64,000 nt of DNA from an uncultured Latescibacterota bacterium (GTDB lineage: Bacteria > Latescibacterota > UBA2968), in contig OY282377.1 of assembly GCA_958295785.1 (NCBI GenBank), positions 2,880,385 to 2,944,384 of the forward strand. Direction: 5' to 3'. A program made the position numbers and the translations under genes. Below are positions 5,523 through 36,512 of the stretch, piece after piece; positions within the stretch are counted from its first letter, which is position 1; each line of letters opens with the position of its first letter. The notes beneath the pieces were generated by a model. The model ran no database searches. It saw only the letters and a program-made list of their open reading frames with translations, and was not told the DNA's origin.

Positions 5523-6735
5523 AAGTACTCTGTAAATTAAGTTATTTTAAGTTTTGAATTGTCTGGATAAACGCGTTGATAATGGGCATTCATCTTGTCT
5601 CTGGCCTTGGGCAAAGTGAACTGCCAATTCAAGGGAATGCCCTTGGCCTCCCGCTCCTGAAAGAAGGCCAAAACTTCCCGGCGCAGTTCCGCCTGCGTCG
5701 CAATGCGCCTATTCAAACATCCTCGCGCCAGAGCCGAAAATTCGATCTCGATCATGTTCAACCAACTCGCCGACTTGGGAGTAAAGAAGAACTCAAACTT
5801 CTGCGCGAGGGCAAACGCCTCATCGGCCGGCAAGGAACGATAGAAGGCATGGCGGGTATGCGTGTTGAGATTGTCTTGCACCAAGCGGATTTTCTCCGCT
5901 TGTGGCCAATGCTGTGTCAGGGCCTGACAAAAGTGGGTGTATTCCTTCATCGTGCGCCGAGGATAGATTTCGGCAAGCCGTTTGCCGCTTAAAGGCTCAA
6001 TGGCGGCCAACAGCGCACACGAGCCGCGATCTCATCGCCGCCCACTTCGCCTGCGCCCAGCTTAAAGGCTCAATGGCGGCCAACAGCGCACACGAGCCGT
6101 GTTTGGTATAGGCATCATGTTCTTTGGTCACTTGGCCTGTTGTCAGGGGCAAGGGATCAAGGACTTGTCCGATGAGAAAACAGGGACGTTCATCAAAGCA
6201 GACCACAGGAACATTGGGATCATGAGGTTGGTCATACAGCCAAAGCAAGGCTTCCATGCGTGCGAGAAAGGACGCATTCACTTTGCGGATACACCATGTT
6301 TTCTTCAAGTGGGGCTTCAATTCGTTTTTTTGAGACTCGTTTTAACATGCGTGTGTGAGAGATGCTCACAAGAGCCCAATGCCACGCAGTGATCCGCCAA
6401 GAGGCGCAACGTCCATCTGCCATGGCCTGCCGGGGGGGTTGAACAGGCCAAGGCGGTGATTTGGGCCCGTTGCTTGCCGGTCATCTCCACCGGGCGTCCC
6501 GGCCGCGGGGCATCTTTGAGGCTGTCCAAGCCGAGGGTGCGGTATTTCTTTGCCCAATGACTCAGGGTCTGCCCGGTCATGCCGAGGGTTTGAGCCCCTT
6601 GGGTGTAGGTTTTGCCTCGGTCGAGTTCAAGCAAGCCCAAGGCGCGTTTGTAGATTCGGGCTTTTTGGTTGCCTTTGGTGATCAAGGCGGTCAAATGGAA
6701 ATAACAAATTATTTAATTTACAGAGTAATAAGTAC
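5523..6735 (-). mobile_element. IS630-family insertion sequence, degenerate
   Basis: Inverted repeats at about 5523-5545 (AGTACTCTGTAAATTAAGTTATTT) and at about 6703-6735 (reverse complement GTACTTATTACTCTGTAAATTAAATAATTTG). The internal transposase is split into three ORFs. Confidence 0.5.
5537..6694 (-). pseudogene. IS630-family transposase, frameshifted, with an internal 38-bp tandem duplication
   Basis: HTH N-terminus (ORF 6317-6694), middle part with CFDERPCF (ORF 5997-6320) and DDE_3 C-terminus (ORF 5537-6010) lie in three frames. A direct tandem repeat TTAAAGGCTCAATGGCGGCCAACAGCGCACACGAGCCG sits at 5989-6026 and 6062-6099. Confidence 0.6.
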
Positions 6736-9103: not shown

Positions 9104-9149
9104 ACGGCGGGGGCGAAACAGCGCTACTGGTTTGCGCCACATCAGGGAC

Positions 9150-11621
9150 ATGGACATGAACAAGAAGATGACCACGCCGGATGCCGCCCGTTGTCTGAAT
9201 CCGGGGGTAACACTGTCCTCTCGGTTGCACAACGCGCTGTTCGTCCTGTTCATCGGCGGAATCCTGGCCTACGGGGCCGGGTTCGCCTGGTACATGCTCG
9301 ACCGCTTCGACCTCCTCAACCTGATCCGCGATGTGAACGGGGACGACGCCTTCTATTACTTCCAGATCGCCCGCAACTTGGCCGAGGGGAAGTTCTCGAC
9401 CTTCGACGGCGGCATCACGCGCACCAACGGCTACCATCCCCTCTGGCTACTGCTCATCACGCCGTTCTACTGGGTATTCGACAAGGAAGCCGCGCTGTTC
9501 GGCATCAAGGCGTTCGAGATCATGCTCGTTGCCGGCGGCGTGGCCCTCGTCGCCGCGGCCGCCCGGCTGGCGCGCCTGCCGTGGGTTCTGATGTTCGCCG
9601 CGCTACCGATGCTCTACCAGCAGTACGGGTTGCTTCTGGGGATGGAAGCGGCCGCTGCTCTGTTCATGCTGGGCCTGTTCACTCTGGCCGCCTGTCTCTT
9701 TGCGCGAAGCCCGGCGCGGTGGAAGTGGCCGCTGGCCGCGGTCGCCTTTGCCCTGCCTTGGGTGCGCCTGGAGTACATCGCCATATCGCTTGCGGCAACC
9801 GCGGCGCTGTGCCTCGTCGAGTGGTCGAGGCGGGAGCGAGTGCCCGGCGCACCACTCGGAGAGCGGGCTCGTTCCGTGCTCTCCGTCAAGGCGGTCACCC
9901 CGTTTCTCGGCGTGGTCGCAGGCATCCTCGTGTACTTCGCATATAACGGTATCGTCTTCGGGGGCGTGACGCCGGTGAGCGGCAAGGCCAAGCAGATATG
10001 GTCGCAACGGTTATGGGGGCAGGAAGGCGGGCACAGTTTCGTTCAGAACTTCCGGGACGTCTTGCAGATTCCTGCCTTCGACCACGAGTTGCTGGTCGCG
10101 CTGGAGGTCTGCGCCTACGTCGTTCTGGTCTGGTGGTTCGCCCGCCGTTCCAGGGGCCGGACAGACTGGCTGCTGTTGGCCTTCCTGATGTGCGTGTTCG
10201 GCTTGGCGGTCGGTCACCTCGCCAAGTTCGCTCAGACCGTTCTCACTGTGCATCCCAACTGGGGGAGTTATGCCTGGTACTTCGTTCCGGCATACCTGCT
10301 GAAGCAGCTTATCATTCCCGTAAGGTGCTATGTCGCCATCCACTTCATCCGCTGTCTCCTCGAACCGAGGTCGCCCCAGGCAACCAACCTCCTGAGCATG
10401 GGCATCGTTGTTGTCGGAACAGCCTTCCTGTTTACAAAGGCGGACTTCACGGGGCCATTCCAGTTAGTTGACCGTCTTGGCAAGTCAACCCACCTCAGCA
10501 TGAAGGTTATTTCTTATATGGGTGTGCAGGTTATGGACCGTGTGTTGCCCGAGGATAGTGTGGTCGGGGCGTGGGACGCCGGCGTCATCGGGTATTTCTC
10601 TCGCTTTCCAGTGGTGAACCTGGATGGCGTGGTCAATTCCTACGGCTACCTGCGCGCCCTAAGGGAAGGAACCGAGGCCACGTTCTACCAGCGATACGGG
10701 ATTACCCAGTTCGCCATCGTCAAGTTCCTAAGGAAAGAAACCGAGGGCCACGTTCTACCAGCGATACGGGATTACCTGGCTCGAAAACGTCGAGAGCGCC
10801 CGACCGTGGGCGAGATCCTGTTCGAAGGCCCGCCATATCTCCATAACAGAAGGAACGTACCGCACAAACGCCAATTCAGACTCCTGACTCTCGAGCCGCC
10901 GGAGATGTCATCGGGCGGGATCAATCGTTCCGACTGGTTCTGGCAACGGATGGAGCCACACTTCAACCACCGGTCGGATGGCGTCGGGTTTCTTGTTGAC
11001 GGGCGGCTGGTACAGGCCTTCGCCAAGGAATGCGATCCGGATGAACTGGTCGTGTGGCCCTGGGCCGGACTAGGGGATGGAACGGTCGCCAGCACCTGGA
11101 CGCAAACGCAGACGAGGTTGTGCGTCACCGCCGCAGTTCTGCCCCACACTATATCGAGTCCGGTTCGGTTCGAGACAATGTCAGAAAGAGATATTCTGTT
11201 TCGTCTGACGGGTGGCAACCCGCCGGTAATCCGATCCGATTGGGATGTGTATCTCGTCGGGAACAGCCTCATCTACGTCAAGGAGCCGTGCATCCCAGAG
11301 GACGTTGAACCAAGGTTCTTCCTCCACCTGGACCCGGTTGACAGGAACGACCTCCCCATCTATCGCAAGCTGTACGGCTTCGACAACCTGGACTTCACTT
11401 TCAGGGATCACGGCTTCGACAACCTGGACTTCACTTTCAGGGATCACCGTTCTCCCATCGAGGGAAGAGCCTGCGTAGCGATACGGGAGTTGCCTGATTA
11501 CGCCATCGCCGCGATCCGCACCGGTCAGTTCACCGGCGAAGGCAGGGTCTGGGAGGGCAACTTCACCTACAACTCTCTGTCCGATAAATCGGAGGCACTA
11601 CACATGGAGGATCCCCAATGA
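9150..11621 (+). CDS. GT-C-fold membrane glycosyltransferase-like protein, paralog 2 (tandem duplicate of paralog 1)
   Basis: NGDDAFYYFQIARNL motif, many TM segments, and a C-terminal domain with a 33-bp internal tandem duplication (GFDNLDFTFRDH x2). Its stop overlaps the start of paralog 3 (ATGA at 11618-11621). Confidence 0.6.
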   Translation: MDMNKKMTTPDAARCLNPGVTLSSRLHNALFVLFIGGILAYGAGFAWYMLDRFDLLNLIRDVNGDDAFYYFQIARNLAEGKFSTFDGGITRTNGYHPLWLLLITPFYWVFDKEAALFGIKAFEIMLVAGGVALVAAAARLARLPWVLMFAALPMLYQQYGLLLGMEAAAALFMLGLFTLAACLFARSPARWKWPLAAVAFALPWVRLEYIAISLAATAALCLVEWSRRERVPGAPLGERARSVLSVKAVTPFLGVVAGILVYFAYNGIVFGGVTPVSGKAKQIWSQRLWGQEGGHSFVQNFRDVLQIPAFDHELLVALEVCAYVVLVWWFARRSRGRTDWLLLAFLMCVFGLAVGHLAKFAQTVLTVHPNWGSYAWYFVPAYLLKQLIIPVRCYVAIHFIRCLLEPRSPQATNLLSMGIVVVGTAFLFTKADFTGPFQLVDRLGKSTHLSMKVISYMGVQVMDRVLPEDSVVGAWDAGVIGYFSRFPVVNLDGVVNSYGYLRALREGTEATFYQRYGITQFAIVKFLRKETEGHVLPAIRDYLARKRRERPTVGEILFEGPPYLHNRRNVPHKRQFRLLTLEPPEMSSGGINRSDWFWQRMEPHFNHRSDGVGFLVDGRLVQAFAKECDPDELVVWPWAGLGDGTVASTWTQTQTRLCVTAAVLPHTISSPVRFETMSERDILFRLTGGNPPVIRSDWDVYLVGNSLIYVKEPCIPEDVEPRFFLHLDPVDRNDLPIYRKLYGFDNLDFTFRDHGFDNLDFTFRDHRSPIEGRACVAIRELPDYAIAAIRTGQFTGEGRVWEGNFTYNSLSDKSEALHMEDPQ

Positions 11622-13708
11622 AGGAGAATGCCCTCCGAAACGCGCGAGTCATTCTGCTACATTTGCCGTGGTTGGCGCTGCTGGGATGGTTCTCCTCTGT
11701 CGCGTGGTTCCTGTGCGACGACGCGTTCATCAGCTTCCGCTACGTCCGTAACCTGCTCAAAGGCCACGGCCTGGTGTTCAACCCCGGCGAATATGTCGAG
11801 GGCTATTCCAATTTCCTGTGGGTGCTGGAACTGGTCGCCATCTGGTGGGCGCTGGACGTGGCCCCGGAGGACGCGGCGCCGTGGCTGTCGGTCGCCTTTA
11901 CCGCCGGCACCATCGCCGCGATGATGTGGTGGATCGCACGTCTGCCGTTGCTGTGCCACCGGGGGCTGGTCGCATGGATGACTCAGGGCCTCGTGTGCGC
12001 CAGTGCCACCTTCGCGGTGTGGACGTCCGGCGGCGGACTGGAGACGCGGCAGTTCACCTTCTTCATCGTCCTGGCCGTGGTGTGCCTGAGCCTTTACAGA
12101 GACAGCCGCCGGGGCCTGCTGGTGGCGTCGTTGAGCCTGGCGGCTGCCGCCTTGACGCGGCCCGAAGGCCCGCTGTTGGCGGCGTTGTGCTTCGGCTGGT
12201 TCGTCATCCAGCGGATGGCGGACACGGGGCGTCTCAATCCGGACTGGCGGCGGTTGATCTGTTTGGCAACGCCCTTTGTCGTCCTGGTCGGCGCCCATTT
12301 CCTGTGGCGATACTCCTATTACGGCGAATGGCTACCCAACACCTACTACGCCAAGCATGTGCGGCCCTGGTATGAGTCGGGTGTTCGCTACTTGTGGGCG
12401 GCGGCGCTGGAGACCGGGCTGTATCTGCTGATCCCCTTGGCCGCAGTCGCCATGCGGAATCGCTGGCGAGCATCCCAGGACGGGATATGGGCGCTGGTGC
12501 TGCTCCTGGTCGGCGTCCACATGGCCTATGTGATGCGGATCGGGGGCGACCATTTCGAGTACCGTCCGCTGGATTTCTACTGGCCGTTACTGGCTGTCCC
12601 CGCGTCCATGGGAATCGTGTACCTCGGCTCGCGGATTGCCAACCACCGGTGGTTGCGACGATTCTCCCCCCGTTTGGCAGTGGGGGCGCGAACGTGCGCA
12701 ATCGTTCTCTTCGTGCCGGTATTGTTCTACACCAGCGCGATTCAGGGCGCCCTGTTATTCGAGGGGGCCGCAATACGCGAACGCATCAAGAGGCTGCACA
12801 TAGAACTCGATGACGACAATGCGGGATGGTTACTTGCCGCGCCGGGGATGCCGATGCTCGTCGCCGTCTCAAATGACCTGCGCCACCAAACGTCCCGGCA
12901 GTTCGTCGCTTTGCCTCTCGCGGAACACCGCGAGTTCGCCAACTGGCAATTGCGAAGGTGGAAGCCCTACGAGAACATGGAGAGGGGAGTGATTCCCGAT
13001 GACGCGCTGATGGTTGGCGGTTCGGTTGGAATCCGCTTCTATTATCTTCCCGACCTGAAAGTCATCGACTCCCTTGGCTTGACCGACGCGACGGTGGCGC
13101 GCAACCCGGTCGAAACCCCCAACCACCAGCGCCTCATCGCCCACGACCGTCAACCACCACCCGGATACCTCGAAGAGCGGGGCGTCAACTTCACTATACA
13201 CCCGCAGGCACCCAGCGCATTCAAGGCGCTTGTCCGTGCGGAATACGCCGTAAAGGTCGGCCCGGATCTGTGGATGCCCTTTGACTCTCCCGACCAGCAG
13301 TGGGTCTTCGACCGTTTTGCCGGACGAGACTTGCGGGTGGCTGATCTCGATTACTGGACAGAGCTGCTCGGAGACCACCAACCGGCAATCCGCTCCGATT
13401 GGGAGGTGTATCTCTTCGGGAACAGCCTCATCTACAAGAAGGAGCAGTGTAACCCGGAGGACGCTGAACCAACATTCTTCCTCCACTTGTACCCGGTTGA
13501 CGTGAACAACCTCCCCAGTCGCCTCAGGCAGGTCGGCTTCTTCAACAAGGACTTCGCTTTCAGGGATCAGCGTATTCCCATCAAGGGAGAAGTCTGCATA
13601 GCGAGGCGGGAACTGCTTTCTTACGGCATCGCAACGATCCACACCGGCCAGTACGTGCGCGTGGACAGCGGTTTTGAAAACCTCTGGAGTGGAGAGATAC
13701 GCCGATAA
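11618..13708 (+). CDS. GT-C-fold membrane glycosyltransferase-like protein, paralog 3 (divergent N-terminal membrane domain, same C-terminal domain)
   Basis: DDAFISFRYVRNL first-loop motif, TRPEG motif, more than 10 TM helices. C-terminal AIRSDWEVYLFGNSLIYKKEQC...TGQYVRVDSGFENLW matches the C-terminus of the PQQ-DH/cytochrome c protein. Confidence 0.6.
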   Translation: MKENALRNARVILLHLPWLALLGWFSSVAWFLCDDAFISFRYVRNLLKGHGLVFNPGEYVEGYSNFLWVLELVAIWWALDVAPEDAAPWLSVAFTAGTIAAMMWWIARLPLLCHRGLVAWMTQGLVCASATFAVWTSGGGLETRQFTFFIVLAVVCLSLYRDSRRGLLVASLSLAAAALTRPEGPLLAALCFGWFVIQRMADTGRLNPDWRRLICLATPFVVLVGAHFLWRYSYYGEWLPNTYYAKHVRPWYESGVRYLWAAALETGLYLLIPLAAVAMRNRWRASQDGIWALVLLLVGVHMAYVMRIGGDHFEYRPLDFYWPLLAVPASMGIVYLGSRIANHRWLRRFSPRLAVGARTCAIVLFVPVLFYTSAIQGALLFEGAAIRERIKRLHIELDDDNAGWLLAAPGMPMLVAVSNDLRHQTSRQFVALPLAEHREFANWQLRRWKPYENMERGVIPDDALMVGGSVGIRFYYLPDLKVIDSLGLTDATVARNPVETPNHQRLIAHDRQPPPGYLEERGVNFTIHPQAPSAFKALVRAEYAVKVGPDLWMPFDSPDQQWVFDRFAGRDLRVADLDYWTELLGDHQPAIRSDWEVYLFGNSLIYKKEQCNPEDAEPTFFLHLYPVDVNNLPSRLRQVGFFNKDFAFRDQRIPIKGEVCIARRELLSYGIATIHTGQYVRVDSGFENLWSGEIRR

Positions 13709-13718
13709 GGAGAATAAT

Positions 13719-15191
13719 ATGAGCGATACTGCTGACCTCGGCCGGGGAGTGCAAGGGGAACCCTCTCGCAAGAAAAGTGTCCGGTTCCCTGCTTGGACAG
13801 CAGGCAGGCGGCCCGATCGCTTCACCCTGCTCCTCGCCGCCCTTGCAGTGCTGGGCGCCGTACTCATCCTGGCGCGGCAGGTCACCTATGGGGTGGGGTT
13901 GCACGGGGATTGGGTCACCTATATTTCTGTGGCCCGAAGTCTGCTGGCGGGAGAAGGCTTCGTTCAAATTCACGGTTGGCCCTATCTGCACTGGCCGCCG
14001 CTGTATCCGATGCTGCTCGCCGCGGCCAGCCTCTTTGCGTTCGACCCCTACGACGTCGCCGGGCCGTTGAATGCCGCTGTCTTCGGCCTGACTCTATTCG
14101 TCGCCGGTCAATACTTGCGGCGGCATGTGCAACACCCTTTCCTGGTCCTTTGGGCTTGTCTCGCCCTCATGCTGGCAATCCCCTTGACCCGGGTGGCCTC
14201 TCACGCAATTTCCGAGGCGCCCTTCATCCTGTTCGTGACGCTCTCTCTGGCGGACGTCCACATTTCTGGATACCGGCAAGCGGTCGGACCTGATTTGGGC
14301 CGCGGCGTTCACTTCCCTGGCTTTTCTGACCCGCTATATCGGCGTCACCTTGATCATCATCACCACGTTACCCCTGCTGCTGTTTCAGCGCGGCGGCGTG
14401 CCATTGGAGAAAGCGAAGCGCATTGGCTCGTACCTGTTGATTGCCGCGTTGCCGGTGGCGCTGTGGCTGTTGCGGAATGTCCTGGTCCACGGAAGATACC
14501 ATGGGCGCAGAAACCCGCCGCCGTGGACGTTGCTGGAGATTCTGGACAAGTTCCTGAGCGATCTGGCCGGGTGGGTCTTCCTCTACTTGCCATCTGGGAG
14601 TGTCAGAGTAGCCGCCGCGGCACTGGGCGGAGTGTGGCCCTATTGGCACTGGCAATGTCCGTCTGCCATGCGGTCGTCCGCTCGTGCCGGAAGGTAGGGA
14701 ACGGCATCGGAGGGAGCTCTTTCCACTTGTTCGGCGGCTTTGCCCTGGTGTACCTCGTCTTTCTCACCGCCTCGCAAGCGACCACCGAAATCCTCCCCTT
14801 GGGCGAACGCTATCTCTCTCCCGCATATATCCCGCTCCTGTTCGCGGCGGTGTTCGCGCTGGACAAGTTCCTTGAGAATCTCCGGCGGACTGCCGATGAT
14901 TCAGAACAAAATAGTTGGAGGAGAGGGGGAACGGCGAGCCTGCTATTGGTTGCCCTGGCGACAACCCTTTCCCTTTGGCTGGCTTGGCAGGTGGTGCTGA
15001 ACGTGCGTGAAATCAGACAGAATAATGAGGGCCGAGGCCTGGGAATAGCCGCGATGTGGGTCAACTCGGAAATCTTGCGGTACATCGAGGAGCATCTAAT
15101 GGCGGAGCGGATATTCAGCAATGTGTCATCTGCCATATACCTCCGCACGGATCATGCGGACCTTCACTATCTCCCCCCAAGCCTACGATGA
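13719..15191 (+). pseudogene. GT-C/ArnT-like membrane protein, paralog 4, with two compensating frameshifts (candidate pseudogene or sequence errors); lacks the shared C-terminal domain
   Basis: RBS TAAGGAG precedes the ATG at 13719. The N-terminus (frame 0) and the tail are membrane-like. The middle part of frame 0 (about 14260-14650) is Arg/His-rich and reads as wrong-frame sequence. The frame +1 ORF 14350-14697 carries the membrane-protein continuation (LIWAAAFTSLAFLTRYIGVTLIIITTLPLLLF). Confidence 0.45.
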
Positions 15192-27490: not shown

Positions 27491-28333
27491 TTACTTCAGA
27501 TAAATCCGCTCCGCGTTTTTGTGAAAGAGTTTTTCGCGCTCTGCCGCGTCGGCATGGGCGACGATTTCGCGCGCTATTCGCGCCCATGTTTTGAGATCGG
27601 ATCGCGTGTTGCAAACCGGCCAGTCGCTACCCCACACCACGCGATGCCAGCCGAAACTTTCGAGGCAGTGTTCAACATAAGGGCGAACCGCTTCAAGGGT
27701 GGCATTGCCCGGCGCGCAATAGGCCAGCACGCCAGAGATTTTGCACGCGACATTGGGAAGCGCGGCCAGTTGCGCGATCAGATCGCGCCAGGGATCCAGT
27801 GCGTTATTTGCAATATCGGGAACGCCGCAGTGGTCGAGGACGAATTGGACATTGGGGCACTTTCGCGCCAATGCGCGGGCAATGGGCAGTTGGCGGGCGA
27901 GGAAGCAGAGGTCAAAAGTGAGGTTGAATTTTTCGAGTAGGCGGATGTTTGCGGCAAAGTGATCCGATTGGGAGAGGGCGTCTGGCATGGTGTGCAAGAT
28001 GCGGCGGAGGCCGACGAGTTTGGGATGCTGGATGGATTCGAGATAGGCTTCAAATCCAACGGGGTTTTCGGGACGGCAGTTGGCGATGATGCCTTCGATG
28101 ATCGCATCGGGCTGTTCGGACAATTCGCAGACAAACCGGGTTTCGTCCCGCCAGTGGGGATCATCGGGCGAGGCTTCCATGAAAATGGTGCGCGCAATGC
28201 CACAACCTTCTGCGGCGACCAAATAATCCTCGATATGGAAGACATTGCCCTCGAGCGGCGCGAGCCCATCCGTCCAGGAATAGGGGTACTTGCGCGGATA
28301 GATCAGGTGTTGATGCGTGTCTAAAATGGGCAT
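27491..28333 (-). CDS. amidohydrolase-2 family metal-dependent hydrolase (TIM barrel)
   Basis: N-terminal [10 protein letters not shown] metal-binding motif. RBS GAGGAGA before the ATG at 28333. Confidence 0.7.
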
Positions 28334-28410
28334 GGGGTCTCCTCGGTGAATCGGTGGCGGACTCGATGTATTTCCCACCTTTGACAGAGCCTTGCCGTTT
28401 TACTGCTGGA

Positions 28411-31400
28411 TCAGAGACTGTGACGCTTATCCAGCAATATCTTTCTCAGTCGGTCAAAGGTGGAAGATCCGATGCCTGTGACCTGTTTGAGTTCGTCAAG
28501 TTGTTGAAATGGCCCGTGCTGTTTGCGGTAGGCCACGATGTTCGCCGCGATTTGAGGGGAAATGTCGAGTCGCTCCTCAAGGTTTTTTGCGGTTGCGCTA
28601 TTGAGGTATTGTAATTGTTCAGCACCCAAACCCCATATTCTGGCAAACAAGGAACCCACCAACCCAGGCACTGTCGGCTTTTCAGGCTGTTCAGCGTCGG
28701 TCGGGCTGTATTCCCCACGCAGAACATTCTGCAATCTCTGTCTCAGTAGCAGTAGGTCTCCGATGCCTTTGACCCGTCTGAGTTCGTCAAATTTTTGGAA
28801 TGGTCCGTTCTGCGTGCGGTAGGCCACAATTTTCGCCGCAATTTGAGGGGAAATAACGAGTCGCTCCTCAAGGTTTTTTGCGGTTGCGCTATTGATATAT
28901 CGCAAGACAATCTGTTCGGTCGGGCTGTATTCCCCACGCAGAACATTCCGCAATCTCTGTCTCAGTCGGTCAAAGGTGTAGGATCCGATGCCTCTGACCC
29001 GTTTGAGTTTGTCAAGTTGTTGAAATGGCCCGTGCTGTTTGCGGTAGGCCACAATTTTCGTCGCGATTTGAGGGGAAATGTCGAATCGCTCCTCAAGGTT
29101 TTTTGCGGTTTCACTATTGATATATCGCAAGGCAGTCTGTTCAAATTGTTCCGCGTCGGTCGGGATGTATTTCCCACCTTTGATAGAGCCTTGCCGTTTC
29201 ACTGTTGATCTGCTTGGCGGCGGCGACCCTTGTTCGGACTTTGGGGCAGGGGCAGATGGCGGACGGGTCACTCCTTTGCTACTCTGCGGTCGCAATGACC
29301 AAAAAACTTCATCAACCGCTTTGAGCATGTCTTTTTTGATTTCCTCCATCTTGCCCTTGATTGAGGTAAAATCCTTTTCTTGAGACTTTTTGATATTGTC
29401 AATTTTTTCTGATAGGGCATCCATTTCATCAGGATCGAGCTTGCTATTCTCAAGTACGTTTATATGATGACCGAGATCGTTGAGTCCTTTTCTCAGCAAC
29501 TTAGCGGTATTCTCGTCTTTGCGAATCGCATTCTCGTACATTGCAAAAACGCTTTTAATTTCCCCTTTCAATTCAGCCTCCAAATCGCCTTTCGGCTGGT
29601 TTTCGCTACGGAAAAAGTCATGCAAAGACACCCCATCCTCATCAAATAAGTATTCCTTATGGTGACGGGCACTGTACGCGCTGATACCCACAGGCTCAAT
29701 ACCCTCGTCCTCAAGCGTTTCCTTTACCTCATCCAAAATATCTTCCAACTCGCTTTCGGGCTTGAGATCCGCCTTGTTCAAAACCACATAAAATGGTAAT
29801 CCGTTCAGTTCCATACCTTTTATGAAATCCAGATCGCTCTGTGGGATGGTGCCGGTGGCGTCCAATCCAATCATCCAGATCAGGGCATCTCTGTCTTTTA
29901 GAACCTCGGCGGCGGTTTTCTTGTCCTGGTCGGTATTTCCCCCGGCCGGGTTGTAGCCCGGCGTGTCGATCAGGCAGATATGTTCCAAGCCCTTCATTAA
30001 AGGAACTTCCACAGTAATAGAAGGCATGAGGTCTTTGAGTTCAAAGGGAAATGTATCGACAAAATTGTGGGACAGTTGGCGGTAAAATGCCGGTGCGATA
30101 TCCACTGTGCCCCCATCACGGGAGAATCCCTTGATAGAGACCTCGGTATTGGAAATCACGAAAGAAGGGATAACGGTGGCGGGTTCGACTTTAACGGGCA
30201 TTTTCACGTCGGACTTGGTGATAAAGCTATTGACAAACTCGGACTTGCCGCTGCTGAAGCCCCCACCAATGGCGATGGATTTCTTGGTGAACGTATGGGG
30301 GAAAGCCACGAGCTCTTCCAAGCGTTTCTCGAGACTTTGCAATTTTTCCACGGCGGCAGCCTCCTCGGCCAGCGAGGACTCCTCATTGGCAAAGGCCATA
30401 AACCGCCCTTCGAAGAGTTCCTTAAATCTCTCGAATGCTTCATTTTCAGAACGTTTGGCGTTAAGCAGGTTGGAGACCAGTTCGTATTTCTGATCCAAAC
30501 TATCGTGCTTCTCGCTCAACTTATCGAAGTCTTGACGAGTTGCATCTAAATCGGATTTTGTGCGGGCATGTTCTTCACGCGACTCGGTCAAGGCTGTCTG
30601 TGTCTGATCGTGCTCGCCGCGCAACGCATTGAACTCAGCCGTTTTTGTAGCATGATTCTCGCGCTCCTCGTCCAAGGCCCTCGTCGTCTGATCGTGTTCC
30701 TCCAGCCACGCATTGAACTCAGCCGTTTTCGTAGCATGATTCTCGCGCTCCTCGTCCAAGGCCCTCGTCGTCTGGTCGTGTTCTTCCTGCAACTCATCGT
30801 ATTCTCGACGCACTTTGGGCCAATCTGTCTGCTTGTATTCCTCGTGCAACGCATTGTATTTTTTCTGTTCATCGCGCAAATCCGCCTTTGTTTGCTCGTG
30901 TTCTGTACGCGCCCCGTCCAAGGCGGTCGTCGTGCGCTCCAATTCCACTGTTGTCCGCTCGTGTTTTGCATGCCACTCATGGAGGTCATGCTGTGCCTTG
31001 TCTAAGGCGACTGCTACGCGCTCGTGTTCCGCACGCAGTTCGTCCAAGGCCCCGGTTGTGCGATTCAACGCCGTCGTTATCTGTTCGTGTTCTGCTTGCA
31101 ACTGCTCAACGCGATGCCGCGCCTCATCTAAATCGGCTGTTGTCTGATCATTCTTTTCCGTCAAGGCACCGTACTCTGTTTGCAACTGCTGAAAACGATG
31201 CCGCGATTTGTCTAAGGAGACCTTTGTTTGCTCGTGTTCCGCACGCGCCCCGTCCAAGGCCCCGGTTGTGCGATTCAACGCTGTTTTTGTCTGTTCGTTC
31301 TTTGCTTGCAACTGCTGAACGCGATGCCGCGCCTCATCTAAATCGGCTGTTGTCTGATCATTCTTTTCCGTCAGGGCACCGTACTCTGTTTGCAACTGCT

Positions 31401-31977
31401 GAAAACGATGCCGCGATTTGTCTAAGGAGACTGTTACGCGCTCGTGTTCCGCACGCAGTTCGTCCAAGGCCCCGGTTGTGCGATTCAACGCCGTCGTTAT
31501 CTGTTCGTGTTCTGCTTGCAACTGCTCAACGCGATGCCGCGCCTCATCTAAATCGGCTGTTGTCTGATCATTCTTTTCTGTCAGGGCACCGTACTCTGTT
31601 TGCAACTGCTGAAAACGATGCCGCGATTTGTCTAAAGAGACCTTTGTTTGCTCGTGTTCTGCACGCAGTTCGTCCAAGGCCCCGGTTGTGCGATTCAACG
31701 CTGTTTTTGTCTGTTCGTTCTTTGCTTGCAACTGCTGAAAGTTCTGCCGCACATTTGCCAAATTTTTGGTTGTTCGCTCGTATTCTCCACGCAACCGCTC
31801 GTGATCCTTTTCCAGTTTGTTGAGGGTGTGTTGCACCTCATTCAATTTGGCAGTTGTCCCTTCCTGTTTGTGCCGCGCCTCGTCCAAGTCGGCGGTTGCC
31901 CGCTCGTATGTTGCACGCAACTTCTGATAGACTGGCCGATTTTGAATAAATCTTTCCCAGATAGATTTCAGACTCAT
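28411..31977 (-). CDS. dynamin-like GTPase (DLP-C, 1188 aa): N-terminal ~500-aa tandem coiled-coil repeats, dynamin GTPase core, Pro/Ser linker, and three C-terminal ComEA-type HhH DNA-binding domains
   Basis: G1 GGGFSSGKSEFVNSF, G3 LIDTPGYN, G4 VLNKADL. C-terminus contains three copies of INSATAKNLEERLDISPQIAANIVAYRKQHGPFQQLDELKQVTGIGSSTFDRLR (ComEA/HHH_3-like). The start ATG overlaps the stop of the upstream gene (ATGA). Confidence 0.8.
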   Translation of the reverse strand: MSLKSIWERFIQNRPVYQKLRATYERATADLDEARHKQEGTTAKLNEVQHTLNKLEKDHERLRGEYERTTKNLANVRQNFQQLQAKNEQTKTALNRTTGALDELRAEHEQTKVSLDKSRHRFQQLQTEYGALTEKNDQTTADLDEARHRVEQLQAEHEQITTALNRTTGALDELRAEHERVTVSLDKSRHRFQQLQTEYGALTEKNDQTTADLDEARHRVQQLQAKNEQTKTALNRTTGALDGARAEHEQTKVSLDKSRHRFQQLQTEYGALTEKNDQTTADLDEARHRVEQLQAEHEQITTALNRTTGALDELRAEHERVAVALDKAQHDLHEWHAKHERTTVELERTTTALDGARTEHEQTKADLRDEQKKYNALHEEYKQTDWPKVRREYDELQEEHDQTTRALDEERENHATKTAEFNAWLEEHDQTTRALDEERENHATKTAEFNALRGEHDQTQTALTESREEHARTKSDLDATRQDFDKLSEKHDSLDQKYELVSNLLNAKRSENEAFERFKELFEGRFMAFANEESSLAEEAAAVEKLQSLEKRLEELVAFPHTFTKKSIAIGGGFSSGKSEFVNSFITKSDVKMPVKVEPATVIPSFVISNTEVSIKGFSRDGGTVDIAPAFYRQLSHNFVDTFPFELKDLMPSITVEVPLMKGLEHICLIDTPGYNPAGGNTDQDKKTAAEVLKDRDALIWMIGLDATGTIPQSDLDFIKGMELNGLPFYVVLNKADLKPESELEDILDEVKETLEDEGIEPVGISAYSARHHKEYLFDEDGVSLHDFFRSENQPKGDLEAELKGEIKSVFAMYENAIRKDENTAKLLRKGLNDLGHHINVLENSKLDPDEMDALSEKIDNIKKSQEKDFTSIKGKMEEIKKDMLKAVDEVFWSLRPQSSKGVTRPPSAPAPKSEQGSPPPSRSTVKRQGSIKGGKYIPTDAEQFEQTALRYINSETAKNLEERFDISPQIATKIVAYRKQHGPFQQLDKLKRVRGIGSYTFDRLRQRLRNVLRGEYSPTEQIVLRYINSATAKNLEERLVISPQIAAKIVAYRTQNGPFQKFDELRRVKGIGDLLLLRQRLQNVLRGEYSPTDAEQPEKPTVPGLVGSLFARIWGLGAEQLQYLNSATAKNLEERLDISPQIAANIVAYRKQHGPFQQLDELKQVTGIGSSTFDRLRKILLDKRHSL
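28440..29150 (-). repeat. three near-identical coding tandem repeats (~230 bp) encoding ComEA-like HhH domains; the middle copy is degenerate
   Basis: The nucleotide block TTGCGGTAGGCCAC(G/A)ATTTTCG.CGC.ATTTGAGGGGAAATGTCGA.TCGCTCCTCAAGGTTTTTTGCGGTT recurs at about 28520, 28800 and 29030. Confidence 0.7.
30560..31900 (-). repeat. coding tandem repeat array (~210-bp period, at least 6 units) encoding coiled-coil heptads of DLP-C
   Basis: Near-identical nucleotide units, for example GCTGAAAACGATGCCGCGATTTGTCTAAGGAGAC at about 31190, 31400 and 31610. Protein repeats LDKSRHRFQQLQTEYGALTEKNDQTTADLDEARHRVEQLQAEHEQ. Confidence 0.7.
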
Positions 31978-34175
31978 GGGTTCACCTCCATTTTTTTCAA
32001 TTCACCCTTGAGGCGGCTGATTCGCCTCAATTCCATTTCTTTCTTTTCAATGGATTCCTCAAGCGTGGTAAGTTCCTTTTCGATTTTTTTCAGAAGTTGA
32101 TCATCCAACCGAACTTCTTTCATCCTTGCGGCGAGAACTTTGGGGTACTCGTTTGCCTTTCTAGACAATTCACGGGAGAGATTGTCAAGGTAATTTTTCG
32201 CCTTATCAATAAATTCCTCCGCCGCATCATCCTCCAACACGCCTTGGGGTTTCAGGGAATCCGGCATTCGGCTTTTATACTCAAATTTTGGGATGGATAT
32301 GGAACTAATGGCGTCCCTGATTACCCGTCTGATCATCGAGGCTTCCAAACTCTCATCGCCAAAGTTGTCCCGCAAAATTTTGGCCATATCCCTGATGAGG
32401 TCGGTCCGCCAATCTCCCTTTTTGTCCTCTACTGTTTTGGTTATTGAATACACTAATTCTTCAGAAAACTTCGACAAGCTATGAGAAACAGCACCTGTGC
32501 GTATGGTAGGATAAGATACTTCCCTTTTAAATAGCCAGAAAAATCCCCATCTTTCTGTACGCATTCTCATTTCTTTCCCTTGATCTATATCCGATTCTGT
32601 ACTCTTTTTTTCGCCTTCGATTTTTCTCCGAAATTCCTCCGCCAAAGAGCGGCTGAGATTATCGACCGATTCCTCGTAACCCCACTTGATATCCGCTGAA
32701 GCATTGTAGAGGGCCTTTTCCAAGGCTTCGCGCTGTGCCTTAATTTTTTCAATATCCGTGCCCTCAATTTCGGACTGCCGCTCGTCGGCAAACGCGAGCA
32801 AGCCATCCTTCAAGGCACGCAAAGACTGGCGTTTTGCGTCAACATACTTCGTCTGCCTTTTTTGGATGATGTCGTCCTTTTTCGCGCGCACCTTCGCGAC
32901 AATATTTTGGATGGCCGAGATGTTGGACAACTTGTTCAAACTGATGCGCGACAAGTTCTCGTCCGCATCGGAAAAATAGTCTGGATAACCGGCTAGCAGA
33001 CTACCCCAAGCGTGCCGCATCCCCTCGTCCCACTCGCCCCGTTGCCCAAAGAGTTGCTTCAGACTTTCGCACATTCCCGACGAGTAAATGATCTTGCTTT
33101 GGCCTTCGAGCAACTGATCGTAGGTATTTCCCACCTCGGGATTGCTCTCTTTCAAATTTGTGATCACCTTGTTCAATTGGTCTCCAAGCACCCCGGTGAG
33201 ACTGTCCAGCACGCGATCCAACTGCCCGTCGTTCTCATCCTTCAGATGACCGAAAAGCTGGGTATCCGCCTGGGCCGCCACGACAAACAGTTCATGGATG
33301 CCTTCCTTGCTGGTGATTCGATCCATCAGTTCCAAATCCACATCATTCAAAAACTGCCCCGACGGGCTGAGGATCAACACCACATCGCATTGATTCAAGT
33401 GCTCTTGCGTCCGCGCCTCGCGGGACTGAACCGGATCGTTGAGGCCCGGCGTATCCACAATTTCTATGTCCTTCAGCTTCTCTTGGGAAAGCCGGAGGTT
33501 GACGCTCTTGGTAAAGGGCATGTATTTGCCCTTCGCGCCGACGTAATCATCCAACTTGTCGCCTAAGTCAGAAATACGGTCAAACTTGAGAAGGCGTTTT
33601 TCTTCCAAAGTCCTGATGGACAACCTGGTAGCATCCATTTTGGTGTATTGCTCATGTGCTGCCGAGAGTTCGACTTTCGCCCGCATCTCCCGATAGGCTT
33701 TGCTTTTTGCCAATTCCTCCGGGGATTTTCGGGATCGGGTTTGTCTCTGTCTTCCTTGTGCCAAGAATTTCCTGTATAGATCATCCCGTTGCCTGTTGTA
33801 CTCTTCGTACTGGGCCTTGATATTCTCAAAGTCCTCTTGGGTGAAAAATTCCACTTCTGCCGACGGGGTATCCCCATGCGAAAGCGTGGTCAAGGCCGCG
33901 GTCATCGGGGTGGCCGCCTTGGGGAGAATGCTTTGCCCGTCAAAGAGGAGGGCGTTCAGCAACGAGGATTTTCCGGATTTGACCCGCCCCACAATGCCGA
34001 TTTTCAGCAACCGGCCTTCATCGGCAATGGCCGCCAAATCCGCTTGCAAGTTCTTGCCCGTGGGAATGCTGTATTCCCGGCAGAGGCGTTGGGCCTCATC
34101 CCCGAGAAAGTCGTGGTAACGGCCCATGACTCGTTCCAACTCTTCCCTGAAAGTGACAATTCCGTTCTGGTTCAT
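31974..34175 (-). CDS. dynamin-like GTPase (DLP-B, 733 aa)
   Basis: G1 GRVKSGKSSLLNAL, G3 VDTPGLND, followed by a long alpha-helical stalk. RBS AAGGAGA. Its ATG overlaps the TGA of DLP-A. Confidence 0.8.
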   Translation of the reverse strand: MNQNGIVTFREELERVMGRYHDFLGDEAQRLCREYSIPTGKNLQADLAAIADEGRLLKIGIVGRVKSGKSSLLNALLFDGQSILPKAATPMTAALTTLSHGDTPSAEVEFFTQEDFENIKAQYEEYNRQRDDLYRKFLAQGRQRQTRSRKSPEELAKSKAYREMRAKVELSAAHEQYTKMDATRLSIRTLEEKRLLKFDRISDLGDKLDDYVGAKGKYMPFTKSVNLRLSQEKLKDIEIVDTPGLNDPVQSREARTQEHLNQCDVVLILSPSGQFLNDVDLELMDRITSKEGIHELFVVAAQADTQLFGHLKDENDGQLDRVLDSLTGVLGDQLNKVITNLKESNPEVGNTYDQLLEGQSKIIYSSGMCESLKQLFGQRGEWDEGMRHAWGSLLAGYPDYFSDADENLSRISLNKLSNISAIQNIVAKVRAKKDDIIQKRQTKYVDAKRQSLRALKDGLLAFADERQSEIEGTDIEKIKAQREALEKALYNASADIKWGYEESVDNLSRSLAEEFRRKIEGEKKSTESDIDQGKEMRMRTERWGFFWLFKREVSYPTIRTGAVSHSLSKFSEELVYSITKTVEDKKGDWRTDLIRDMAKILRDNFGDESLEASMIRRVIRDAISSISIPKFEYKSRMPDSLKPQGVLEDDAAEEFIDKAKNYLDNLSRELSRKANEYPKVLAARMKEVRLDDQLLKKIEKELTTLEESIEKKEMELRRISRLKGELKKMEVNP

Positions 34176-35902
34176 GTTCGTTCTCCTTGTTGTGCAAAAA
34201 GCACCGGCGTTGCCAGCAACCGGATGTTCTCTCGAATGCTGGTCAGATCCGCAATCGTTTGCCCAATGTCCTGAAGCGCGTCCTTCTTGGCCTGCTCGGC
34301 TTCGGCGATTTCGCTTTGTTTGGCCTTGATCTGCGAATCCAAAGCCACCGCGTTCTCATTGATGAGGCCGTTCACTTGATCCTCGAAATCTTTGGGCAGT
34401 TCGCTCCGCAGTTTGCTTTTGATGGACGGGATAACGGTTCCAATCAGTTGGTTGCGAATCTGCTCCTCCTGCCGCCGCTTTTGAAAGTAGCCAATAATGT
34501 CGGGCAGGAAGATGATGAAGAGTTCCAAAATTGGCATCACAAAACTGGTGGTAATGGCGAGCGTGGTGGTGAGAACGCGGTACAAATTCCGTCCGCCTTT
34601 GACTGCACCGCCAACCCCTTTGAGAATCGCACTTCCCTCAGAAAGAAGTTGTGGGGCACTGTACATTGCTTTTTCCAACCAATTTTCATTGCTCGTATAA
34701 GAGGAAAGAATGTGGTCAATGCCTTTGACGCTTCTGGACAGGTCTTCGACGATCTGTCTGTTCAACTGCTCCATTTCGGTTTTCACATGGCTCACGAGCG
34801 AAGAGCGCAGGATTTCCGACATGTGCCGCTGAAAAGCATCTTCGCCGCTGGACAGGGCGATGCCGGTCAATTCCTCTACGGCATTGTTCAGGTCCGCGCC
34901 CACGCGCTCCACAATGTCGTTGGCACGGGTCGTGGAATACCGCGAGCGGACGTCCCGAATCATAGCGTCCTTCTTTTGTTCCAAGTCTCGAATGCCCGCG
35001 GCGAGTTCGTCAATGGCCTCTTGGTTCTCGCTCTCGTCCTTTTTCAAGGAACTGATCCATGTGTTCAAGCTGCCGTCGATATCGAAGAAATGCCCCTCCA
35101 AGCTGGGGCGATAAAGCCGGGTGAAAAGCTCCTCTGGGTCAATGGCTCGAAACATTCTGTCCAGACTATCCCCGCCATCCTTGCCCACGGGAACGACCGC
35201 GTCGGCAAAGTCGAAATCGTCCTCGAGCCGATCTTGGATGTTCTGTGCGATTTCTTGAACCTCGGACTCCGAGCGCAAATTCGCCTTGCTCAAAAACACG
35301 GAAAACGGCTTGTCGAACTCGTCAAATTCGGACAACTGCCGATGGGCTGACTGCGTGACTGTGCCCTCCTCCACGCTGATCAAGACCGCATAGTGGCTCC
35401 CTCGGGCGAGGTACGTCAAAATGGCGCGATGGTGCAAATCCAGCGGCGAATCAAACCCCGGCATATCCACGAGCACGAGGGGCGCGATTCCCTTGAGTTG
35501 TTCGCTGTTGAGAAAGACCTCGACATATTGGTATTGCGCCGCCTTCTCTTTGATCGCGCCGATCTCCGCGATGGCGTAGCGATCCGACTCGCCATTTTTC
35601 ATGATGGCCTCAACGCGCTCGCTGTCGGAATAGCGCAACTCGGTTGCCAACGCGGTTTCCGGGGTGATGTTGACGGGCAAGTAATCGGACCCCAAAAACG
35701 AGTTGATCAACGTGCTTTTGCCCGAGCTGAAAGCCCCGACGACCGGCACGACCAACTCGGCCTCGGCAATATCCCGCTTCAACTCCTCTGCGGACTGGAT
35801 GTTTTTCCCAAGTTCTTCAAACACCCCCAAAGCACTCGTCCTATCCAATTCCGCCTTTATCCCATCCAAATAATCGCAAAACGCGCTCTGCGTCTGAAGC
35901 AT
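34172..35902 (-). CDS. dynamin-like GTPase (DLP-A, ~576 aa), first gene of the operon
   Basis: G1 GAFSSGKSTLINSFLG, G3 LVDMPGFD, G4 LSKANL. Start chosen at the ATG at 35902 behind RBS GGAGGGAG (MLQTQ...). Confidence 0.8.
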   Translation of the reverse strand: MLQTQSAFCDYLDGIKAELDRTSALGVFEELGKNIQSAEELKRDIAEAELVVPVVGAFSSGKSTLINSFLGSDYLPVNITPETALATELRYSDSERVEAIMKNGESDRYAIAEIGAIKEKAAQYQYVEVFLNSEQLKGIAPLVLVDMPGFDSPLDLHHRAILTYLARGSHYAVLISVEEGTVTQSAHRQLSEFDEFDKPFSVFLSKANLRSESEVQEIAQNIQDRLEDDFDFADAVVPVGKDGGDSLDRMFRAIDPEELFTRLYRPSLEGHFFDIDGSLNTWISSLKKDESENQEAIDELAAGIRDLEQKKDAMIRDVRSRYSTTRANDIVERVGADLNNAVEELTGIALSSGEDAFQRHMSEILRSSLVSHVKTEMEQLNRQIVEDLSRSVKGIDHILSSYTSNENWLEKAMYSAPQLLSEGSAILKGVGGAVKGGRNLYRVLTTTLAITTSFVMPILELFIIFLPDIIGYFQKRRQEEQIRNQLIGTVIPSIKSKLRSELPKDFEDQVNGLINENAVALDSQIKAKQSEIAEAEQAKKDALQDIGQTIADLTSIRENIRLLATPVLFAQQGERT

Positions 35903-36149
35903 GGCGACTCCCTCCAAAAAATGAAGCCCTCTCTGTCTCAAAAAAGGCCAATGGATCTGTCAAGTCATATTGCCAGTTCGTGAGCCTCCGATCCTTGATG
36001 ACCACGCGGCGAAAGGCGTCTATGGGAGGGGTATCGGTCACGGCATTGGCTTCGGTCACACGAAATTAAAAATCAGCTATCAGCCCCTGTCTATCTGAAA
36101 TGACGTTGCTCCAGCACATGCTTTGCCGACCGCTTGGGGCCTGGGCGGC

Positions 36150-36215
36150 TCTCTCGCGTCTTAGAAGTTGTCTTAAAACGAAAGATGACCCCTCCCCCGG
36201 CCCCTCCCCGCAACG
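36150..36215 (+). repeat. short intergenic repeat module of the 'CTAAGAAGC.GTCTTAAAACGAAAGATGACCCCTCCCCC' family
   Basis: Copies at 21030-21080 (+), 36395-36450 (-), 45785-45840 (-) and 55035-55085 (-). The last two begin exactly at the stop codons of the OMP gene and nadA. Confidence 0.6.
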
Positions 36216-36512
36216 GGGAGGGAGATGTTCTTCCACCTTGTATCTCGCCTTTTCGGGCGGGCACGGGGGCACCGCCCCTACGTTTCTATCCCGCATCTTT
36301 CTTGTAGGGAGATCTTGATTCCCCCCTTCCTTGTAGGCACAGGCGCACGCCGCAGGCATGGCGTAGCCATACCCTACAATGAGCGGAGCGAATAACGGGG
36401 GTTAGGGGGGTAGGTCCCGATAATTTTAAGATGGCTTCTTATATCTTCGGGCCGGCACGGGATCACACCCCTGCGTTACTGAATGACACCGCTTCAGCAT
36501 CTACCTCGCGTT

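Follow-up and report, generated by a model that had tools for sequence, protein, structure and literature searches.

Three-gene dynamin-like GTPase operon with a putative DNA-binding third subunit in an uncultured Latescibacterota bacterium

The stretch of DNA analysed here (hereafter, the window) comprises 64,000 nucleotides of an uncultured Latescibacterota bacterium (assembly GCA_958295785.1, contig OY282377.1, positions 2,880,385 to 2,944,384). Three adjacent genes on its minus strand encode the dynamin-like proteins (DLPs) DLP-A, DLP-B and DLP-C. This A-B-C triad is a conserved and widespread three-dynamin system, unnamed and uncharacterised. The long-armed, DNA-binding form in the window is an unusual and informative variant of it, with the DNA binding being a prediction. 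We consider it fairly probable that the triad is a three-subunit system in which A and B remodel the membrane as a pair while C serves as an exchangeable subunit for binding a target, which here would be cytoplasmic double-stranded DNA (dsDNA).

According to the list of open reading frames (ORFs), three minus-strand ORFs fill positions 28411-35941 (Table 1). The stop codon TGA of DLP-A overlaps the start codon ATG of DLP-B (...GAACGAACATGAACCAG; ...GAA CGA ACA TGA with ATG AAC CAG), and the stop codon of DLP-B overlaps the start codon of DLP-C (...GTGAACCCATGAGTCTG; ...GTG AAC CCA TGA with ATG AGT CTG). Both overlaps are the 4-nt sequence ATGA, at 34172-34175 and 31974-31977. An earlier note on this DNA, made from the letters alone, had placed the three genes and their overlaps at these positions, and they are read directly from the sequence. 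The three genes form one translationally coupled operon. The most plausible start of DLP-A is the ATG at 35902, which a GGAGG box precedes by 8 nt; the longest ORF would begin at a TTG at 35941.

A non-coding gap of approximately 600 bp (35903-36512) lies upstream of DLP-A. It contains two strong GC-rich hairpins on the plus strand, at 36202-36222 and 36265-36279. No further copy of the first hairpin sequence was found within the window, and no repeats were found in this intergenic region. The GC content of 28001-34000 is 0.49-0.52, compared with 0.57-0.60 in the downstream flank, and the AT skew is strongly negative. The low GC content and the skew of the operon may reflect Glu/Lys/Gln-rich coding or a horizontal origin.

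The earlier note assigned all three proteins to the dynamin family, and this holds for each of them. Against the Pfam family Dynamin_N (PF00350; gathering score 27 bits), DLP-A and DLP-B score 67.7 and 79.1 bits, respectively. Among solved structures, the closest sequence match of DLP-A is Campylobacter jejuni DLP2 (Cj-DLP2, 5owv_C, E 7e-6), and Nostoc BDLP (2j68) is also matched (E 4e-5). The closest match of DLP-B is Cj-DLP1 (5owv_A, E 2.5e-12), with BDLP at E 4e-8. The sole hydrophobic peak across the three proteins (Kyte-Doolittle 2.2) is located at aa 440-477 of DLP-A, and this putative paddle motif is kept across 68 homologs. No hydrophobic segment was found in the hydropathy profiles of DLP-B and DLP-C, and none of the three proteins has a signal-peptide-like N-terminus. 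As only this one hydrophobic segment is present and the N-termini are not signal-like, DLP-A, DLP-B and DLP-C, including the C-terminal module of DLP-C described below, are predicted to be cytoplasmic, with DLP-A as the membrane binder.

The G1, G3 and G4 motifs had been attributed to all three GTPases, which is correct in part. G1 (GxxxxGKS) and G3 (DxPG) are invariant in A, B and C (68-71 homologs). The canonical G4 is found only in DLP-C (NKAD), and the corresponding residues are SKAN in DLP-A and AQAD in DLP-B. The homologs have S-K-x-N in A (Asn in 55 of 68) and S/A-Q-x-D in B. In DLP-A, the S-K-x-N replacing (N/T)-K-x-D is located at aa 205-208 (35279-35290). The change from Asp to Asn at this G4 position alters base specificity in other GTPases. 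Thus, by analogy, DLP-A may use GTP in other than the usual manner.

The Dynamin_N score of DLP-C is low, and its weak sequence matches in NCBIfam and the PDB include YsxC, Der and Era. DLP-C was therefore modelled structurally, using aa 480-1188 with 47 homologs, and the mean predicted local distance difference test score (pLDDT) of the model was 82. The model shows three helices, the G domain, three further helices, a disordered Pro/Ser-rich linker and three helical units. The G motifs are GGGFSSGKS (G1, aa 571-579), DTPG (G3, aa 671-674) and NKAD (G4, aa 734-737). In a Foldseek search with this model, the best 50 PDB matches are all dynamin-superfamily proteins. The large G domain lies between helical necks, and the fold is nearest to solved dynamin-family structures. 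Moreover, 70 of 71 members of the C family match Dynamin_N (E<1e-4, best 3.6e-17). According to the model and these matches, DLP-C is a dynamin-superfamily protein, naturally truncated to approximately the 'minimal GTPase domain' of mitofusins, with no trunk, paddle or membrane element.

The N-terminal arm of DLP-C is predicted to be all-helical, with helices at 15-90, 102-237, 245-381 and 387-505 in the full-length AlphaFold2 (AF2) model. The earlier note described approximately 500 aa of near-identical coiled-coil repeats. Such repeats are confirmed as four tandem 70-aa units with protein identities of 69-100%, and Tandem Repeats Finder (TRF) gives a 210-bp DNA unit in 3.4 copies at 90%. The repeats account for approximately 280 aa of the arm of approximately 505 aa, and the remainder is non-repetitive predicted helix. 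Homologs of DLP-C have 80-403 aa ahead of the P-loop (median 146). A further repeat in DLP-C has a 28-aa unit in 2.3 copies. Matches of DLP-C to SMC, Rad50, JetC and LmuB were dismissed as compositional (coiled coil), because they are limited to aa 1-450 and are far under the cut-offs.

The Pro/Ser-rich linker and the three tandem ComEA-type helix-hairpin-helix (HhH) domains recognised earlier are both present (Table 1). HHH_3 matches DLP-C in three stretches with a total of 146.3 bits (cut-off 27), and TIGR00426, the model of the ComEA HhH region, scores 113.1 bits against a cut-off of 53.1. The PDB matches of this region include ComEA (8dss, E 2e-8; 8dfk, E 1e-6) and EEPD1 (9yi2, E 1e-8). 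The full-length ComEA model TIGR01259 gives 124.8 bits, under its cut-off of 152.35. HHH_3 is also found in cytoplasmic proteins, among them Tex, EEPD1 and KIF22. A 225-bp DNA repeat covers part of the HhH region, and one canonical GIG hairpin is kept in each unit. The calculated pI of the module is 10 (aa 951-1188). From the domain family and this pI, the module is predicted to bind dsDNA independently of sequence, on the cytoplasmic side.

The triad is not confined to the window. A search with aa 490-1188 of DLP-C gave 574 homologs, and an exhaustive search with the core gave 379 clusters at 50% identity (E<=1e-30) in 1.84 billion representatives. The C family is real but rare. In a genome scan with one genome per species (80 loci; tblastn and ORF mapping), the order A-B-C was found in approximately 75 of the 80 loci, often with -4 or -1 overlaps; the synteny proposed as a check on the triad is thus upheld. 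The closest triads are in Latescibacterota. Others are found in Gemmatimonadota, Deferribacterota, Campylobacterota including Helicobacter pylori, Pseudomonas, Neisseria, Marinobacter, Rahnella, Fibrobacter, Spirochaetes, Bacteroidales and Fusobacteria. The arrangement A(~575)-B(~745)-C also occurs in the close relative L001, of which A is 99% identical, and in two Gemmatimonadota metagenome-assembled genomes (MAGs; L002 and L007). A-B-C is likewise present in the Latescibacterota locus L003, with an ankyrin-tailed C, and in Denitrovibrio acetiphilus (L005). Plasmid-borne triads were found on a Pseudomonas aeruginosa megaplasmid and on Escherichia coli IncF plasmids.

RefSeq annotates the triad proteins, the plasmid-borne ones included, only as 'dynamin family protein'. 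No description of the triad was found in open-access papers and bioRxiv, and the same sources gave no relevant paper on HhH domains or WYL regulators in connection with bacterial dynamins. The principal survey of NTPase conflict systems (Kaur et al. 2020, eLife 52696) makes no mention of dynamin. Comparative genomics of H. pylori reported a strain-variable island with 'three dynamin-like' proteins, which were not analysed there and are possibly the triad (PMC8935386). The earlier suggestion of an undescribed system needs the amendment that the triad is widespread and its proteins carry the RefSeq name.

According to the sequences compared, A and B are constant, and C is modular with interchangeable tails. 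The P-loop of C homologs lies 80-571 residues from the N-terminus (median 146), and 0-527 residues (median 65) follow the core. DLP-C of the window has the longest N-terminal arm among them. The domains appended to 71 genome-derived C proteins are FGE-sulfatase (9), ankyrin repeats (7), HHH_3 (6), zinc ribbons (5), IF2_N-like, PP-binding and EF-Tu domain 2. Among 45 long C cluster representatives, they are WG-beta repeats, Sel1, TPR, MORN, FGE-sulfatase and biotin-lipoyl. HhH is one of many alternative C tails; among the homologs collected here, HhH-tailed C proteins occur only in Latescibacterota and Gemmatimonadota relatives. The HhH fusion, with one to three units, is retained down to 45% identity, so it is a maintained architecture and not an accidental one. 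Some genomes have at least two paralogous triads, or tandem C genes, with differing tails.

Paralogous triads within Latescibacterota genomes are represented by the locus pairs L014/L020, L013/L017 and L011/L016. Tandem duplicated C genes with ankyrin and FGE-sulfatase tails are located at 8001-13853 of L003. On the E. coli IncF plasmid NZ_CP148386.1 (L090; 7776-11475), a short C (405 aa) is followed by an overlapping gene for an 830-aa 'CFI-box-CTERM domain-containing protein'. This 830-aa gene may be a C tail present as a separate fourth gene.

The nearest described arrangements are the pairs C. jejuni DLP1/DLP2 (5owv) and Nostoc BDLP1/2, which are likewise two adjacent dynamin-like genes, of approximately 600 and 730 aa. 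Cj-DLP1/2 and BDLP share the BDLP/mitofusin class with A and B, with one subunit carrying a hydrophobic paddle. Compared with Cj-DLP1/2, the order of A and B is reversed (short, then long), and only the G domains are similar in sequence. Moreover, the triad includes, as an obligatorily linked third subunit, a truncated dynamin whose tail varies; the described pairs have no such subunit. The folds nearest to DLP-C are the 'minimal GTPase domain' of mitofusin/Fzo1 and mycobacterial IniA. In contrast to these, DLP-C is naturally truncated at this level, having neither a second helical bundle nor a trunk or membrane anchor; in their place are the coiled-coil arm and the HhH domains. What ComEA has in common with DLP-C is only the DNA-binding (HhH)2 domain, which belongs to HHH_3. 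ComEA is small and membrane-anchored or periplasmic with one such domain, whereas DLP-C has three copies at the C-terminus of a cytoplasmic GTPase.

LeoABC/Eleos resembles the triad in that it is an accessory, horizontally mobile operon of several dynamin-like genes. LeoA (577 aa) is similar in length to DLP-A (576 aa), and PADLOC models give weak matches on DLP-A (LeoA 1e-9, LeoBC 2e-9). The PADLOC matches overall are partial, with E 1e-9 to 1e-6. However, LeoC (206 aa) and LeoB (572 aa) make up one split dynamin (PMC4159319). Leo/Eleos therefore has two dynamin units, LeoBC, which is sometimes split, and then LeoA (PMC4159319; 10.1101/2022.05.11.491447), whereas the triad has three complete P-loop GTPases in the order short-long-truncated. 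The Leo proteins also lack a DNA-binding or repeat tail such as that of DLP-C. DynA of Bacillus subtilis is similar to the triad in having several dynamin-like G domains at the cytoplasmic membrane and a proposed protective role. In contrast to the separate triad genes, DynA joins two full DLPs in one chain of 1187 aa, and it has no DNA-binding module.

Membership in LeoABC/Eleos, DynA, CrfC and slr1306 was rejected. DLP-A scores 23.7 bits against the LeoA/HP0731 model NF041922 (cut-off 325) and 26.8 bits against the CrfC/YjdA model NF007368 (cut-off 1146), and the DynA model NF052648 gives 23.9 bits against a cut-off of 1600. For none of these four was a cut-off reached by the window proteins or by the H. 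pylori and Denitrovibrio homologs (NCBIfam/PADLOC). The H. pylori and Denitrovibrio triad proteins gave no match to the Leo models, the A proteins giving none at 1e-5. The architecture is unlike BDLP, DynA, LeoABC and IniA/C, in agreement with the earlier note. Of the three conditions that the note named as refuting its interpretation (a non-dynamin GTPase family, C-terminal repeats without a match to HhH/ComEA models, and absence of synteny), none was borne out.

Genes next to the triad were surveyed by pooling two ORFs on each side of approximately 38 non-redundant triads. By far the commonest neighbour family is WYL (11 ORFs) together with WCX (9), and PADLOC WYL models match 12-13. A co-oriented HTH-WYL-WCX (HTH, helix-turn-helix) regulator lies just upstream in 11-13 of these loci. 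It was verified individually with Pfam as co-oriented and directly upstream of A in seven loci (Dechloromonas, a Phycisphaerae MAG, Amphibiibacter, Rahnella, Neisseria, Luteibacter and Marinobacter), and Denitrovibrio (L005) has a WYL/WCX gene at the equivalent upstream position. The HTH-WYL-WCX architecture is that of BrxR/CapW, which are regulators of defence systems, and of PafBC in the DNA-damage response. With the Denitrovibrio WYL protein as the query, jackhmmer did not recover the regulators upstream of other triads, because these are too divergent; Pfam searches on individual ORFs found them.

Several other neighbours were recorded in this survey. A DUF1232 protein is encoded directly upstream of the triad in three sampled neighbour ORFs, that of Denitrovibrio included; the upstream region recorded in Denitrovibrio is 2237-3791 of L005. 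PADLOC matches to IetA/TRIP13 are probably proteasomal AAA ATPase genes adjoining Latescibacterota triads and not defence genes. Seven neighbours match PADLOC Cas3c.

For the three-subunit reading, we presume the following mechanism. The constant A/B pair would bind the cytoplasmic membrane and remodel or tether it using GTP, on the model of C. jejuni DLP1/DLP2 and BDLP. The G domain of DLP-C would pair in a GTP-dependent manner with that of A or B, as in the general dynamin mechanism. This pairing would couple the ligand of the C tail to the A/B membrane machine. In this genome, in which C has a coiled-coil arm of approximately 500 aa and three basic (HhH)2 domains, the ligand would be dsDNA. 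For the family as a whole, we consider a stress- or invader-responsive (defence-like) role, with C as the target-recognition subunit, the most likely, because the distribution is patchy and mobile, the regulators are of an inducible type, C is hypervariable and paralogs are expanded. It is a tentative further proposal that the triad is an unrecognised dynamin-based immune or stress system, in which C, through its exchangeable tail (HhH, ankyrin, TPR, Sel1, WG-beta, FGE-sulfatase or zinc ribbon), would sense an invader-derived molecule and, by GTP-dependent pairing of G domains, switch on remodelling or sealing by A/B. The form in the window would then act close to the membrane as a sensor or clamp for foreign DNA in the cytoplasm, such as entering phage or plasmid DNA.

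Several observations weigh against this reading. The physical link between A, B and C, their GTP-dependent coupling, the DNA binding and the biological role are all inferred. The score of DLP-C against Dynamin_N, 23.7 bits (E 5e-5), is under the 27-bit threshold. The coiled-coil arm is modelled with low confidence (pLDDT 45-75, AF2). The first hairpin in every HhH unit lacks the GIG motif, and therefore the affinity of the module for DNA is assumed. A search of phage genomes with the C core gave no homolog. As for the surroundings, the neighbours in the window are housekeeping and catabolic genes, not mobile or defensive ones, and do not make up a defence island. The Latescibacterota loci, that of the window included, have neither WYL nor defence neighbours. 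Apart from WYL, clear defence genes (for example BREX and type I methyltransferases) adjoin only a few of the approximately 38 loci sampled for neighbours. A co-localisation with defence of 60% was reported for Eleos (preprint 10.1101/2022.05.11.491447), and that of the triad looks much weaker.

Because the metabolic neighbourhood is conserved, a housekeeping role in nucleoid-membrane contact or membrane repair is the main rival within this lineage. The operon would then be a constitutive envelope-maintenance or membrane-repair machine like DynA, with the HhH arm anchoring or positioning chromosomal DNA at the membrane, for instance in division or segregation, and with no part played by an invader. 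In the window and the closest relative, the operon is situated amid conserved metabolic genes with no mobile or defence genes nearby, and the Latescibacterota triads are syntenic, adjoining GFO/IDH/MocA, Ldh_2 and proteasome-ATPase genes. A long coiled coil with predicted sequence-independent DNA binding is typical of structural tethers. However, the family is patchy and accessory, occurs on plasmids, and lies beside transposases and resolvases in Denitrovibrio; in H. pylori it is apparently limited to some strains, where it would lie in genomic islands (PMC8935386). The hypervariable C tail and the several paralogous triads per genome are unusual for a core tether, and the WYL-WCX regulators point to inducible expression. 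We regard this role as rather unlikely, less so than any other rival considered here. An improbable reading is that the triad forms DNA-containing vesicles or exports DNA, with A/B driving budding and C loading the DNA. The LeoABC dynamins have been linked to vesicle-associated secretion (PMC4159319), and the triad joins a membrane paddle in A to a predicted DNA binder in C. However, the proteins fall short of the LeoA and LeoBC models, and as all three are predicted to be cytoplasmic, outer-membrane budding is not directly accessible to them. As most C tails (such as ankyrin, TPR and Sel1) are not DNA binders, the loading of DNA cannot be what the family does in general.

The two other explanations concern DLP-C. 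A ComEA-like accessory of uptake or competence, in which HhH captures incoming periplasmic DNA and the GTPases pull it in, was among the roles proposed from the sequence, and the HhH domains do match ComEA models and structures. The score against full-length ComEA is nevertheless below the cut-off, DLP-C has no signal peptide or transmembrane segment, no competence genes lie near the operon in the window, and HHH_3 is not restricted to exported proteins, as seen above. With the HhH module predicted to lie in the cytoplasm, DNA uptake is highly unlikely and the proposal is disfavoured. The sub-threshold Dynamin_N score and the YsxC, Der and Era matches would fit a small GTPase of the Era/EngB type to which unrelated domains are fused, and the repeat arrays, 90% identical in DNA, could have been mis-assembled, which would make the length an artefact. 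An Era/EngB-type GTPase was rejected on the fold searches, and the Dynamin_N matches of the homologs also speak against it. As for the length, an independent metagenome protein (P0001, 1187 aa) is 99% identical over the GTPase-to-HhH region used as the query, and relatives of DLP-C with 900-1003 aa share the layout. We give this explanation hardly any weight.

So far, bacterial dynamins have been described as lone proteins, as pairs or as fusions, and little is known of what they act on. The family described here adds a third, truncated dynamin that varies only in its binding module, and thus offers a handle on the target to which a dynamin is recruited. The HhH variant suggests a concrete target, dsDNA, and would connect a bacterial dynamin directly with nucleic acid for the first time. 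Should the family prove defensive, the parallel between Eleos/DynA and eukaryotic Mx would come to include a modular system that bears sensors. Although rare, the family is found in pathogens and plasmids (H. pylori, P. aeruginosa megaplasmids, E. coli IncF plasmids). There is a reasonable chance that the triad represents a new functional class.

Table 1. Features of the triad operon, with positions in the window
Feature	Position	Strand	Description or basis
DLP-A	34172..35902	-	576 aa dynamin-like GTPase; conserved hydrophobic helical hairpin (predicted paddle); Dynamin_N match
Predicted membrane-inserting paddle, DLP-A aa 440-477 (LAITTSFVMPILELFIIFLPD)	34472..34585	-	Hydropathy and conservation
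GGAGG ribosome-binding site	35911..35915	-	8 nt upstream of DLP-A ATG; read from sequence
DLP-B	31974..34175	-	733 aa, long BDLP-type dynamin-like GTPase; start overlaps DLP-A stop
DLP-C	28411..31977	-	1188 aa: coiled coil, minimal dynamin-like GTPase, linker, three (HhH)2; start overlaps DLP-B stop
Lineage-specific all-helical N-terminal extension, DLP-C aa 1-505	30463..31977	-	Full-length AF2 model
Four tandem 70-aa near-identical repeats, DLP-C aa 72-351	30925..31764	-	TRF and protein identity
Conserved core, DLP-C aa 506-897	29287..30462	-	Three neck helices, G domain, three further neck helices
Pro/Ser-rich linker, DLP-C aa 898-930	29188..29286	-	Predicted disordered, pLDDT <50
Three tandem ComEA-type (HhH)2 domains, DLP-C aa 931-1188	28414..29187	-	HHH_3, TIGR00426, structure matches

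The operon is flanked on one side by genes for an amidohydrolase, RNase PH, an MFS transporter and a sulfatase. The other flank encodes a GFO/IDH/MocA oxidoreductase, a small coiled-coil protein and a heparinase II/III-like protein. This neighbourhood is syntenic with that of the relative. The coiled-coil protein (197 aa; 37910-38503, plus strand) is encoded two genes upstream of the triad; its position is conserved in L001, where the counterpart gives a weak Apolipoprotein match. The sole RNA gene detected in the window is a tRNA-Thr (TGT) at 42538-42613 on the minus strand. Away from the triad, four large ORFs (880, 852, 696 and 505 aa) follow one another with overlapping ends at 6461-15191 on the plus strand. 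They gave no Pfam match at E<=1e-5 and have the highest GC content of the window (0.58-0.62). This region looks like an uncharacterised operon.

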